Positions 16,729 through 18,632 of a stretch of 38,455 nt of DNA are shown piece after piece. Where the stretch lies: the IMG/VR virus record IMGVR_UViG_2713896790_000012; one strand, written 5' to 3'. The number at the start of each line of letters is the position of its first letter. Within the stretch, counting starts at the first letter, position 1. The notes under the pieces are model-generated. The model did not search any database. It saw nothing but the letters and a program-made list of their open reading frames with translations, and was not told where the DNA came from. Origin of the DNA: a virus (lineage: Duplodnaviria; Heunggongvirae; Uroviricota; Caudoviricetes). The translations under genes and the position numbers were made by a program.

Positions 16729-16980
16729 TTAGTCCTGATTTTTATCCACCCTGAGTAGTTCGCGCAGAGCAAAGGCATCCCCTTTTCTGGCAAGCTTAAA
16801 CAATGCCGCTCGTAACTCGGCTTCACCTTTCGCTCTGCCCTTACGGATGGCCGCATAAAAATCTGTCATTGCTTCCCGATTTTCTTTCAGTCGGTTCAGA
16901 TCAACATCCAGAACGTCAGCGATTTGTTGTGCAGTCATCCGGCACGCTGCCAGAGACTCGACTTTCGAATATGGAATCAT
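16729..16980 (-). CDS. Small HTH-type protein upstream of terS
   Basis: 83-aa ORF (true start may be the internal Met at 16938); MTAQQIADVLDVDLNRLKENR looks like a helix-turn-helix. Confidence 0.4.
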   Translation of the reverse strand: MIPYSKVESLAACRMTAQQIADVLDVDLNRLKENREAMTDFYAAIRKGRAKGEAELRAALFKLARKGDAFALRELLRVDKNQD

Positions 16981-17848
16981 TTGTCACCCCTATTGATATG
17001 CAGGGTGTCTTCTTCCTGTATTTTTCGTGAAGGATTTTTACTGCAGCGTTGTTCCAGGTGACCTGATGGTGAATGCGTTTATGGCTGGCACCCATCAGTG
17101 AGATTTTTACGCACGACGGCGCATACATGACGGAGTAAAAACTTTTAACGTAGGTTCCGGAATCCAGATACAGCTCGGTCATTCCGCCGCTGTTTTTCTG
17201 CGTCTGTTTCTGCCCTAACTGGACAGCACCGATCGTCATAAACAATTCACCACAGCGACCGAGATTCGTGTACGTATTCACATCCTCGTTAATGCGCCCC
17301 ATGAATGAGAACGGTCGATCAACCGAACAGATAAAGCTGTTCATTGCCTTGCGTTTCACCCACGAAGCATGGCCGCCATTGTCACCAAGAAAATCCCCGC
17401 CCTGCGACATAGCGATGGAAAGAGCAGGTATTGATTCGTAGTACGCCAGCATTTCAGAAAGGATCGCATCCAGTTTCCTTATCGGAAAATAGGCCTGGTC
17501 ATAGTTGCGATCCACCCGAAACTGGAACTCGTGATAATCATCATCGAGCTGAATGAAGTATTTACACCCGACCAGTTTTGCCAGGTCGAAACAGGCATTA
17601 CGGGCGTAAAAAATTGAGCGGCGGTCACCGAAATTATCGGCTTCGTCAAAACGACTGGCGATATCGGCTTTGGAAAACACCAGCACCTGTTCACCAAATT
17701 CAGCCATGTACTGATGCCGTGTCTTATCTTCATCATCAACAACGATAAAAATTTTCCCGGTATAGCCAGCACGACGCAACGTCCGGTAAGTCAGAACTTT
17801 GTCCGGTCGCCCGTGAGTCAGAATAAAGGCGCAAAAATCATCACGCAT
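16916..17848 (-). CDS. GT-A fold family-2-like glycosyltransferase (soluble)
   Basis: Start at ATG 17848 preceded by GAGGAGGAGG SD; FILTHGRPDKVLTYRTLRRAGYTGKIFIVVDDEDKT resembles the GT2 N-terminal signature (PTYNRP...EIIVVDDGSxD), plus a DxD-type motif YFIQLDDDY; no hydrophobic TM segments. Confidence 0.55.
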   Translation of the reverse strand: MRDDFCAFILTHGRPDKVLTYRTLRRAGYTGKIFIVVDDEDKTRHQYMAEFGEQVLVFSKADIASRFDEADNFGDRRSIFYARNACFDLAKLVGCKYFIQLDDDYHEFQFRVDRNYDQAYFPIRKLDAILSEMLAYYESIPALSIAMSQGGDFLGDNGGHASWVKRKAMNSFICSVDRPFSFMGRINEDVNTYTNLGRCGELFMTIGAVQLGQKQTQKNSGGMTELYLDSGTYVKSFYSVMYAPSCVKISLMGASHKRIHHQVTWNNAAVKILHEKYRKKTPCISIGVTNDSIFESRVSGSVPDDCTTNR

Positions 17849-18632
17849 ATTCCTCCTCCTCACCACCATGCATGATCTCCACCATGCGCTGCGTCATCCG
17901 GACAAATCCATTTTCAATAGCCTGCTGATAATCAATGATCACCAGCGCCGACTCCTCGAAAAAACACTGAATTTCAGCGGGGGCGTGAGCGTAATAGTCC
18001 GCAATTCTGCTGAAATTAAACACCGTGTGGCGTTCTGCCGCGCACAGGAGGAATTTTTCGATATCGGGCTCAAGGGACGCCGAACGTATCCGGCTGATCA
18101 GCTCCTGAGTTTTCGTATCGTCGTACAGCTCACTGATGTCCGGTTTATCGCCCGACGGCTCATAAACAGGCGTATCAATTTTCGTCGTGTACGGCTCCTC
18201 CTCATTTCCTGTACCTGGCAAAACATCCGTCAACAGTTCATCAATTTCTGTCGGGCTGAATCCTGTCAGGGAGATATCAAAATCAGCATTGATTAGCTCC
18301 GACAGCTCCATCCGCAACAGTTCTTCATCCCAGCCAGCGTTCAGCGGCAGGCGATTATCTGCCAGGCGGTACGCCTTTTTCTGATCATCCATCAAACCAG
18401 ACAGAACGATGACCGGAATGGAATCCATTTTGAGCACTTCAGCCGCCATAACGCGACCGTGACCAGCAATAATTTCGCCCTTTTCATCAATCAGCACCGG
18501 ATTAGTCCAGCCGAATTGCTTAATGCTTTCTACCAGTTGTGCCACCTGCTCAGGGCTGTGTGTCCTGGCGTTGTGTGCATACGGAGACAGTTCTTGTAAA
18601 GGGCGATAGACGATCTTCAATTTCTCGCTCAT
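17841..18632 (-). CDS. ParB-like nuclease-domain protein
   Basis: N-terminal ...NPVLIDEKGEIIAGHGRVMAAEVLKMDSIPVIV... matches the ParB/Srx-fold N-domain pattern; C-terminal 160 aa unassigned; stop overlaps GT-like start by 8 nt. Confidence 0.7.
   Translation of the reverse strand: MSEKLKIVYRPLQELSPYAHNARTHSPEQVAQLVESIKQFGWTNPVLIDEKGEIIAGHGRVMAAEVLKMDSIPVIVLSGLMDDQKKAYRLADNRLPLNAGWDEELLRMELSELINADFDISLTGFSPTEIDELLTDVLPGTGNEEEPYTTKIDTPVYEPSGDKPDISELYDDTKTQELISRIRSASLEPDIEKFLLCAAERHTVFNFSRIADYYAHAPAEIQCFFEESALVIIDYQQAIENGFVRMTQRMVEIMHGGEEEEYA

Follow-up and report, generated by a model that had tools for sequence, protein, structure and literature searches.

The question raised by this locus is what two overlapping genes on the minus strand of a Caudoviricetes genome do together, and which acceptor is used by the enzyme that the second of them encodes. 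The genome is the IMG/VR record IMGVR_UViG_2713896790_000012; its whole stretch of 38,455 nt is called the window here, and gene and feature positions within it follow its numbering. The first gene (17841-18632, minus strand), ParB-like and of the ynaK type, encodes a 263-amino-acid (aa) protein with an isoelectric point (pI) of 4.5, referred to below as the partner, and the second (16916-17848, minus strand) encodes a 310-aa GT-A glycosyltransferase of the TET-associated glycosyltransferase (TAGT) family with a pI of 8.0; both were identified as open reading frames (ORFs) with profile matches. In this study we observed that partner and TAGT form an obligate two-gene module, and that this is a widespread, conserved and translationally coupled pair without prior characterisation. 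Our favoured reading, to which we give a probability of about one half, is that the pair glycosylates DNA late in infection, with the partner activating the transferase and with an acceptor other than the classical one.

Obligate pairing and distribution

The pairing was examined in both directions. A forward scan with one genome per species gave 78 loci, and the 80 loci tested consisted of the 75 among these with a complete TAGT ORF and 5 others. A partner homologue was located upstream on the same strand in all 80, usually overlapping the TAGT start, across more than 12 phyla; the groups represented include Proteobacteria, Bacteroidota, Clostridia, Negativicutes, Acidobacteriota, Chlorobi, Saccharibacteria, Planctomycetota, Verrucomicrobiota, Kiritimatiellae, Ignavibacteria, Cloacimonadota, Actinobacteria and others. 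For the reverse test, IMG/VR was searched with the C-terminal module of the partner alone, which returned 80 loci, 79 of them with room downstream, and TAGT followed in 79 of 79 (77 directly adjacent and 2 within 2.5 kb). Stop-codon recoding was considered for six IMG/VR loci that seemed to lack TAGT and was dismissed, as direct translation gave intact adjacent TAGT genes. The two genes are functionally coupled and, as a first-pass annotation of the window had it, are not a textbook system. As a control, the distant TAGT of the T4-like phage Aeh1 has no partner.

The pair was also detected in the Lactobacillus phages c5, LL-Ku, phiLdb and phi jlb1, in Nocardia phage NTR1, in 191-kb Vibrio phages and in the haloarchaeal virus HHTV-2 (43% identity). 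With at least 497 clusters at 50% identity, the clade is one of the most widespread TAGT clades. T4-like TAGT enzymes share only about 23-25% identity with it and form a separate clade, and the dedicated partner, always found with the window clade, is absent from the one T4-like enzyme examined (Aeh1). The literature searched, which did not include the computational paper of Iyer et al. (2013) that is said to have first defined TAGT, held no description of the partner-TAGT pair, of the C-terminal module or of the acceptor.

At the junction of the two genes, the predicted 8-nt overlap is present on the minus strand as ATGCGTGA (17841-17848), with the partner stop TGA (17841-17843) inside it and the TAGT ATG at 17846-17848. 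The very strong Shine-Dalgarno sequence described before the second ORF is GAGGAGGAGG (17852-17861), 3 nt 5' of this ATG; the coupling element read from the sequence thus spans 17841-17861, and the junction from partner end to TAGT start is GGTGGTGAGGAGGAGGAATATGCGTGATGAT. The 310-aa start is also the one chosen by RefSeq, and an alternative 317-aa reading from an ATG at 17869 has no Shine-Dalgarno sequence. Overlapping starts of 4, 8, 11 or 14 nt recur in unrelated lineages, so the coupling of partner and TAGT is not due to chance.

The transferase

The 310-aa protein matched the Pfam family PF20691 (TAGT) with 121.5 bits (6e-35; cut-off 27.5 bits) over profile positions 4-205 of 205, and phrog_842 with 2.4e-103. 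Its AlphaFold2 model shows a confident GT-A core at residues 1-150 (predicted local distance difference test, pLDDT, > 90), and its C-terminal third is poorly modelled as a monomer. Among PDB structures, Foldseek retrieved only GT-A enzymes for this model, and TAGT-domain proteins came top among the BFVD viral models. Profile and structure searches therefore uphold the glycosyltransferase family. The label of a soluble 'GT2-like' enzyme holds as far as soluble GT-A is concerned, and the specific family is the DNA-associated TAGT (PF20691).

The GT-A signature pointed out in the first-pass annotation, consisting of THGR-PD (R14), VVDDEDK (D38-D41) and LDDDY (D102-D104), proved to hold the most conserved positions of the family. 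Residues R14, D41, D102-D104, N187 and D189 are invariant, and E188 nearly so, in homologues that share only 40-65% identity. The active-site motifs R...DDD...ED(Y/F) are present, the third position of ED(Y/F), next to E188-D189, being V and not Y/F. The DDD motif of the DxD type, for metal and nucleotide sugar (D102-D104; 17537-17545, minus strand), is invariant in 32 sequences and corresponds to that of the R...DDD...ED motif of phage GT-A DNA glycosyltransferases (bioRxiv 10.1101/2023.12.21.572611). A conserved basic C-terminal region (aa 201-285; 16994-17248, minus strand; pI 9.7) carries invariant TQ, GGMT, GTYxKxFY, RxHH and W, and would form the acceptor or partner-binding side. The ratio of non-synonymous to synonymous substitution rates was 0.14 for TAGT and about 0.17 for the partner, indicating purifying selection on both, with synonymous sites saturated at only 12-15% non-synonymous difference.

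The proposed difference from membrane-anchored, seroconversion-type Gtr enzymes is also confirmed. No Gtr-type families (GtrB, flippase, serotype-specific transferase) were found in profile scans or in the prophage annotation, and no transmembrane segment or signal peptide was noticed on reading the translation, for which no prediction tool was run; the transferase is soluble and its neighbours are a ParB-like gene and terminase genes. With the members of the TAGT family, namely the T2/T6 enzyme, phage TET-associated GT-A enzymes, the kinetoplastid base-J glucosyltransferase and GREB1, it shares the GT-A fold, the R...DDD...ED motif and a score above the cut-off, and with the phage enzymes of the family also its solubility and phage origin. 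From its sequence, we take the 310-aa protein to be a soluble GT-A transferase of the TAGT family with intact motifs and predicted activity.

The partner protein

The N-terminal part of the partner (aa 1 to about 100; 18333-18632, minus strand) is a ParB/Srx nucleotide-binding domain with NAR, AGHGR and LADN motifs; the protein scored 28 bits against PF02195 (ParB_N) and 1.5e-88 against phrog_620. By Foldseek, this domain resembles CTP-binding ParB (ParB-CDP), Noc, PadC and KorB over about 140 residues. Its nearest sequence relatives are the N-domains of ParB-DNA-methyltransferase fusions (phrog_498, 2.8e-50; PADLOC MTase_II, 5.7e-37), and a methyltransferase-type ParB domain was the sole match of the pair in PADLOC, which covers defence systems. 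In the hidden Markov model alignment, box II shows GHGR opposite the canonical GERR, and ADN stands opposite IEN; the phosphate-binding Arg and the box III Asn are kept, and the catalytic Glu is replaced by His. With box II Glu lost, no helix-turn-helix (HTH) family found in the profile scan and no parA found in the prophage, the partner departs from canonical ParB CTPases; a nuclease motif was likewise looked for in it and not found.

In the AlphaFold2 model, the nucleotide-binding domain is followed by helices, a disordered stretch (136-169) and a helical C-terminal domain, and the protein is acidic throughout. Across 65 aligned partners, conservation is highest in a linker motif together with the C-terminal domain, and not in the ParB domain. 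The linker motif YTTKIDTPVYEPS (aa 148-160; 18153-18191, minus strand; consensus Y-[TS]-x-K-I-x-x-P-x-Y-E-P) is disordered according to AlphaFold2 (pLDDT < 50), and its residues Y148, P155 and Y157 are conserved in at least 90% of the 65 partners, which come from many phyla, and do not vary among 17 selected sequences. The C-terminal domain (aa 161-255, about 95 residues; 17868-18152, minus strand) reads FLxxAAxRHxVFNFxxIADYYAHA...SALVIIDYxxAIxNGF in the window, the family-wide pattern of the 65-partner alignment being FLxxAAxRHxVFNY..IAEYYAHA..SALVIID..AIxNGY. It had no Pfam match and no significant match in a profile search against PDB sequences, and its AlphaFold2 monomer model was too weak for an informative fold search.

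Short partners of 131-148 aa, which consist of linker and C-terminal domain only, were found in 7 of the 80 genome loci (about 9%) and in Vibrio phage pv27. The ParB domain is missing in all of them and the linker motif is kept in all, so the ParB fold is not the core of the partner. As judged from these alignments, the linker motif and the previously undescribed C-terminal domain appear to be its essential part, and the ParB domain appears dispensable. The ParB-like identity proposed earlier is thus correct for the N-domain but not as the key feature of the protein. The link then drawn between the ParB/Srx fold and DNA modification finds support, as the N-domain is of the type fused to phage DNA methyltransferases.

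Such fusions are often terminase-proximal. The ParB-N6/N4 DNA methyltransferase fusions are similar to the window pair in their closely related ParB N-domain and as late-expressed genes of DNA modification, the role proposed for the window pair (PMC12704722). The window module differs from them in consisting of two polypeptides with a different chemistry, and the fusion profiles, whose matches stop at about residue 141-144, did not pick up the partner linker and C-terminal domain. Kaljevic et al. reported that orphan ParB-fold proteins in prophages bind CTP, ATP or GTP (PMC12704722).

A closer precedent in layout is provided by O'Toole et al. (2026), who described a subclass of phage thymine dioxygenases that needs an adjacent ParB homologue for activity on double-stranded DNA; in this homologue, which lacks a DNA-binding domain, a nucleotide-binding domain is followed by helices, then by an unstructured linker and finally by a C-terminal domain (PMC13229309). 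Its nucleotide-binding and C-terminal domains are both required, mutations of the residues that bind nucleoside triphosphates have little effect, and the C-termini of dioxygenase and ParB were modelled together, with the dioxygenase held at the place of the canonical ParB DNA-binding domain (PMC13229309). The window pair and this 5mYOX176/ParB176 type are alike, by layout and not by sequence comparison, in an adjacent ParB homologue that has a nucleotide-binding and a C-terminal domain and no HTH found, often near terminase genes; the enzyme of that type is a post-replicative DNA modifier, and the C-terminal side of its ParB is predicted to contact it. They are unlike in that the window enzyme is a glycosyltransferase and not a 5-methylpyrimidine dioxygenase, and in that the window-type C-terminal module can stand alone without the ParB domain.

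We propose that the transferase would be the nucleotide-sugar-dependent enzyme and the 263-aa protein its dedicated adaptor or activator, a dependence for which the reciprocal co-occurrence (80/80 and 79/79) is indirect support. The two probably form a physical complex in which the linker motif and C-terminal domain of the partner engage the C-terminal region of the transferase, which is conserved and basic but poorly modelled. Since the partner is acidic and has no DNA-binding domain, this basic region would be the one that contacts the substrate. The ParB nucleotide-binding domain, where present, may serve as an accessory switch for nucleotide-dependent control or DNA loading. Such an adaptor arrangement would resemble the model of ParB and thymine dioxygenase.

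The same properties of the partner raise the alternative that a protein is glycosylated. In the simplest version, the transferase would modify Tyr/Thr of the partner's own linker (Y148, T149, Y157), as glycogenin does on tyrosine, to give an acidic glycoprotein acting on DNA transactions or host defences; in another, a host or phage DNA-handling protein would be modified with the partner as adaptor. It is in favour of this that the TAGT family includes the protein O-GlcNAc transferase GREB1 (PMC7968844), that the PDB neighbours of the transferase include glycogenin and the peptide S-glycosyltransferases SunS and ThuS, that conservation in the partner peaks at a disordered motif whose Tyr and Pro residues do not vary, and that the partner combines a pI of 4.5 with the lack of a DNA-binding domain. 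However, GT-A structural hits are generic to the fold, and the studied ParB partners of such architecture are activators, not substrates (PMC13229309). From bacteria to archaea, hardly any variation is seen in the acceptor side of the enzyme or in the partner motif, which fits mutual recognition but fits the DNA model equally. By itself, protein glycosylation also gives no account of the methyltransferase-type ParB domain or of genomic contexts confined to replication and packaging, and glycosylation of virion proteins, an option named in the first-pass annotation, would leave the replication-module contexts unexplained. We regard a protein acceptor as unlikely, though it is the foremost of the rivals.

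Genomic contexts and variant cassettes

The module lies exclusively in DNA-packaging or DNA-replication contexts. A full-length partner is typically followed by TAGT, the small and then the large terminase subunit, and the portal, and the pair stands directly upstream of three unrelated terminase types, namely Terminase_2/Terminase_6 (as in the window), Terminase_4/TerL_ATPase and the lambda GpA type. In phage c5, it constitutes ORF1-ORF2, directly after the cos site. Short partners are found inside replication modules: DNA polymerase A, (second TAGT), partner, TAGT and beta sliding clamp at loci L113 and L136; primase-helicase, partner, TAGT and SNF2/DEAD helicase at L108; and primase, exonuclease, partner, TAGT and helicase in phage pv27.

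Translational coupling and late-operon expression suggest that, in lineages with full-length partners, the enzyme would act on replicated DNA just before or during packaging, and in short-partner lineages it would work at the replication fork. The alpha-glucosyltransferase of T4 works with the replisome clamp (PMC13216743), a link that is echoed by the polymerase/clamp neighbourhood of the short partners. The alpha- and beta-glucosyltransferases of T4 are phage enzymes that glycosylate DNA after replication, as is proposed for the window transferase; unlike the window transferase, they have a GT-B fold and no partner protein, and depend on hydroxymethylcytosine (hmC) incorporated at replication.

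These contexts also bear on the possibility that the ParB-like protein is a packaging or partition accessory, such as a nuclease or a binder of pac or cos sites, and the glycosyltransferase unrelated neighbouring cargo. The protein adjoins cos and terminase genes, and its historical annotations are 'ParB-like nuclease' or 'partition protein'. This explanation is nevertheless largely refuted by the reciprocal co-occurrence (80/80 and 79/79) and the overlapping reading frames across phyla, and parA, an HTH domain and a nuclease motif were not found. As the short form, without a ParB domain and within replication modules, occurs away from terminases, the packaging-accessory role raised earlier is further weakened, and we consider it hardly credible.

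Variant cassettes carry additional functions. Among the 150 best representatives of the 50%-identity clusters, the long TAGT proteins comprise TAGT-TAGT, TAGT-methyltransferase, TAGT-sulfotransferase and P-loop-kinase-TAGT fusions. P0271, P0308 and P0318 have an N-terminal domain of about 180 aa with a Walker A motif, P-loop kinase-like and without a Pfam hit, P0286 is fused to a carbohydrate sulfotransferase (Sulfotransfer_2), and P0248, P0251 and P0287 are fused to class I methyltransferases; glycans bearing phosphate, sulfate or methyl groups are implied by such fusions. In two unrelated lineages, a UDP-galactopyranose mutase (GLF, about 1e-73) directly follows TAGT (L138, 3340-4527; L162, 10822-11967), which suggests galactofuranose as the sugar transferred there. 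A clostridial clade has a radical SAM enzyme of about 320 aa right after TAGT and before the small terminase subunit (L133, 10860-11816; L135, 10830-11816; also L137, L139, L142, L152 and L164), and this enzyme might make the acceptor or modify it. In L135, L139 and L153, partner and TAGT are separated by a second TAGT paralogue. The tailoring and sugar-supply additions argue that TAGT really uses nucleotide sugars; with respect to a protein acceptor, tailoring enzymes and a supply of UDP-galactofuranose fit glycans on proteins or polysaccharides just as well as those on DNA.

Separately, the replication module of L136 holds, at 3735-5095, a second and unrelated glycosyltransferase (Caps_synth / DXD type) together with a MobA-like nucleotidyltransferase, which looks like a small sugar-activation and transfer set between primase and DNA polymerase.

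The acceptor

In all phage DNA glycosylation known to us, the sugar is built on a hydroxymethyl- or hydroxy-pyrimidine that another enzyme has supplied. No TET/JBP enzyme, other 2-oxoglutarate oxygenase, thymidylate-synthase homologue or DNA methyltransferase was found in the window by prophage annotation and a Pfam scan, the latter covering those ORFs of 140 aa or more whose annotation was missing or uninformative, or which differed from the annotated record of Escherichia coli APEC O1. The complete genomes of phages c5 (31.8 kb) and phi jlb1 (38.3 kb) likewise yielded no candidate hydroxylase, thymidylate-synthase homologue or methyltransferase. Upstream of the pair, 247 proteins from about 110 loci were surveyed (150 from 34 genome loci and 97 from 79 viral loci), and no hydroxylase or hydroxymethylase family recurred in two or more of them; as this census lists families seen in at least two proteins and the strongest singletons, a rare divergent enzyme could escape it. 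The recurrent families were those of replication and recombination, a few DNA methylases, and ASCH domains in four proteins, out of the 97 non-redundant ones scanned in the 3.5 kb upstream of the pair at the IMG/VR loci L167-L246. ASCH is a PUA-like domain and a proposed reader of modified nucleic acids, and these neighbours, seen at four loci, are in line with a DNA context. A cryptic hydroxylase, sought in the window, c5, phi jlb1 and the related loci, was thus discarded as a candidate.

The window module therefore differs from other systems of the TAGT family in having no TET/JBP, hydroxymethylase or alpha- or beta-glucosyltransferase, and no genomic link of TAGT to a hydroxymethyl-pyrimidine source or a primary DNA glucosyltransferase was seen. 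The acceptors of the characterised TAGT relatives are all hydroxyls, namely 5-hydroxymethylcytosine (TET), 5-hydroxymethyluracil (JBP), glucose on hmC, and Ser/Thr in GREB1 (PMC13216743, PMC13390438, PMC7968844, bioRxiv 10.1101/2023.12.21.572611). Since no enzyme making a 5-hydroxymethyl-pyrimidine accompanies the module, its acceptor would not be the classical one. The DNA-modification module put forward in the first-pass annotation hence stands as the leading hypothesis, strengthened by the replication-module contexts and by the ParB-activated thymine dioxygenases (PMC13229309), while the classical TAGT reaction is not to be assumed.

Other phages present a comparable picture. Solitary TAGT homologues with no alpha- or beta-glucosyltransferase were reported in 288 of 753 glycosyltransferase-encoding phage genomes, with their function left open (PMC13216743, 2026), and these probably include the window clade. 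Pyle et al. found that about 65% of contigs with GT-A or GT-B enzymes have no 5mYOX or thymidylate-synthase neighbour, and listed ParB-like genes and terminases among the neighbours of glycosyltransferases (bioRxiv 10.1101/2023.12.21.572611).

Classical chemistry could still operate if the hydroxymethyl-pyrimidine came from elsewhere, either from a hidden divergent hydroxylase or from the hmC or glucosyl-hmC DNA of superinfecting T-even phages, in which case the pair would serve interference. Membership in PF20691 and phrog_842, a named member being the T2/T6 beta-glucosyl-HMC-alpha-glucosyltransferase (PMC13216743), is in line with this, the Pfam TET/JBP model misses thousands of 5mYOX-like sequences (PMC13229309), several neighbour genes have no annotation, and the idea that prophage glycosyltransferases modify invading DNA was voiced by Pyle et al. 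(bioRxiv 10.1101/2023.12.21.572611). However, no candidate hydroxylase was found in c5, phi jlb1 or the scanned window ORFs, and none recurs upstream; the genes lie in a late operon behind a terminator and not in a lysogenically expressed position; the pair occurs in c5, a complete genome without an annotated integrase, and in an archaeal virus; and a true T4-like TAGT has no partner. Taken together, we consider this explanation improbable.

Still more improbable, in our judgement, is an RNA or small-nucleotide acceptor, such as a 2'-hydroxyl in tRNA or primer RNA, or a nucleotide signal of host immunity, with the nucleotide presented by the ParB domain. RNA and nucleotides offer universal hydroxyls, ParB-fold domains bind CTP, ATP or GTP (PMC12704722), the PDB neighbours include AvpGT with Ara-A, a nucleoside glycosyltransferase, and some TAGTs of the clade are fused to the P-loop kinase-like domain. 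On the other hand, the ParB nucleotide-binding domain is dispensable in several lineages, the neighbourhoods hold no pointer to RNA or signalling, and the terminase linkage would be left unexplained.

For the favoured reading, with DNA as the substrate, the acceptor may lie in a canonical base, at a DNA end or in some other universal feature, and the expected benefit would be an injected genome shielded from host nucleases. One specific form of it, in which the sugar is put directly on unmodified DNA without prior hydroxylation, for example by sequence-specific N-glycosylation of a canonical base or by end capping, is tentative and in our view rather doubtful. Several points weigh against a DNA acceptor. 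Unmodified DNA offers a hydroxyl acceptor only at its ends, and the characterised TAGT relatives all need a hydroxyl; no glycosyltransferase is known to us that naturally yields an N-glycosylated DNA base. The literature searched held no report of DNA modification in any pair-carrying phage, and restriction maps of relatives of the classical Lactobacillus delbrueckii phages c5 and LL-Ku are not known to us to have mentioned modified DNA. The strong acidity of the partner and its top-conserved element, a disordered Tyr/Thr-rich peptide, would also suit a protein acceptor. No ParB-TAGT fusion protein was seen among the 150 best cluster representatives, and the structure models are weak exactly in the regions that matter, the C-terminal third of TAGT and the linker and C-terminal part of the partner.

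Organisation of the locus in Rac-like prophages

All genes in this part of the window are on the minus strand, and the pair is located between trkG and the terminase genes, as had been indicated before. The potassium transporter gene trkG (18770-20245) lies upstream of the partner gene and after the lysis genes, and between trkG and the partner gene there is a strong terminator-like hairpin (18660-18683, minus strand) with a 10-bp stem and the tail TGCGTTTTAT. This hairpin marks trkG as a separate insert with its own terminator-like element and as the real moron of the region, and late transcription must read through it to reach the partner, TAGT and terminase genes. The placement of the pair itself in a moron slot is accordingly abandoned in favour of a conserved, obligate late/packaging-operon module found across phyla.

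The packaging genes downstream (14349-16980), with Terminase_2 and Terminase_6N/6C matches, comprise a small HTH-like ORF (16729-16980) next to TAGT, TerS (15631-16725) and TerL (14349-15659), the last two identified by Pfam terminase matches. The small ORF matches the middle of the long TerS profile phrog_309 and shares its reading frame with TerS (start at 16725), with only TAA-CTG between them. The APEC O1 TerS is a RefSeq pseudogene with an internal stop, and the window, with G and not A at 16527, encodes an intact TerS of 364 aa.

Over the 2-kb region of the pair, identity is 100% with a Rac-like prophage present in E. coli APEC O1 and in strain K56-43-un, where the first gene is annotated as ynaK or 'ParB/Srx family N-terminal domain-containing protein' and the second as 'hypothetical' or, in newer annotations, 'GREB1-related protein'. 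The full pair was detected in Rac-like prophages of 866 of 5426 complete E. coli genomes (about 16%), and about 730 further genomes, including K-12, have deletion remnants only. The statement that K-12 Rac retains only remnants is correct: ynaK is reduced there to its first approximately 100 codons, covering the ParB N-domain, which are joined to ydaY (DNA match). Overexpression of K-12 ynaK raised the minimum inhibitory concentration of six antibiotics in a 2026 screen (PMC12924614). This phenotype was set aside as a clue to the module, as it concerns the remnant of about 100 codons and says nothing on the intact pair.

Some further features of the window were noticed. Masked runs of N occupy 1096-1187 (92 bases) and 1438-1487, 1708-1757, 20594-20643 and 24910-24959 (50 each), and one of them breaks the Rz/spanin region. 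In the early region, the window differs from APEC O1 by indels and allelic replacements, with coordinate offsets of 3301, 3219 and 4219 in different parts, and hence is not just the APEC O1 prophage. The early/NinR-like region contains a full-length homologue of the epoxyqueuosine reductase QueH (25129-25794, minus strand; PF02677, 1.8e-65), and phage genes for tRNA-Gly (22397-22471) and tRNA-Thr (22475-22550) are not far away. QueH is unusual in a lambdoid prophage and may point to manipulation of tRNA modification; it showed no link to the ParB-TAGT pair in other phages.

Significance

A module that lacks the hydroxylation step would mean either a new acceptor chemistry on DNA or a large protein-directed branch of a 'DNA' glycosyltransferase family. 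Direct glycosylation of unmodified DNA, if true, would be a new chemical class of DNA modification carried out by a minimal two-protein system. The new partner domain, consisting of linker and C-terminal part, may explain the ParB-like activation of DNA-modifying enzymes, which has been open since the 2026 study of thymine dioxygenases. Being carried by a common E. coli prophage and made of two genes only, the module is directly testable in E. coli, and, if it protects DNA, it would be a compact tool for phage engineering as well as a blind spot for restriction- and sequencing-based analyses.

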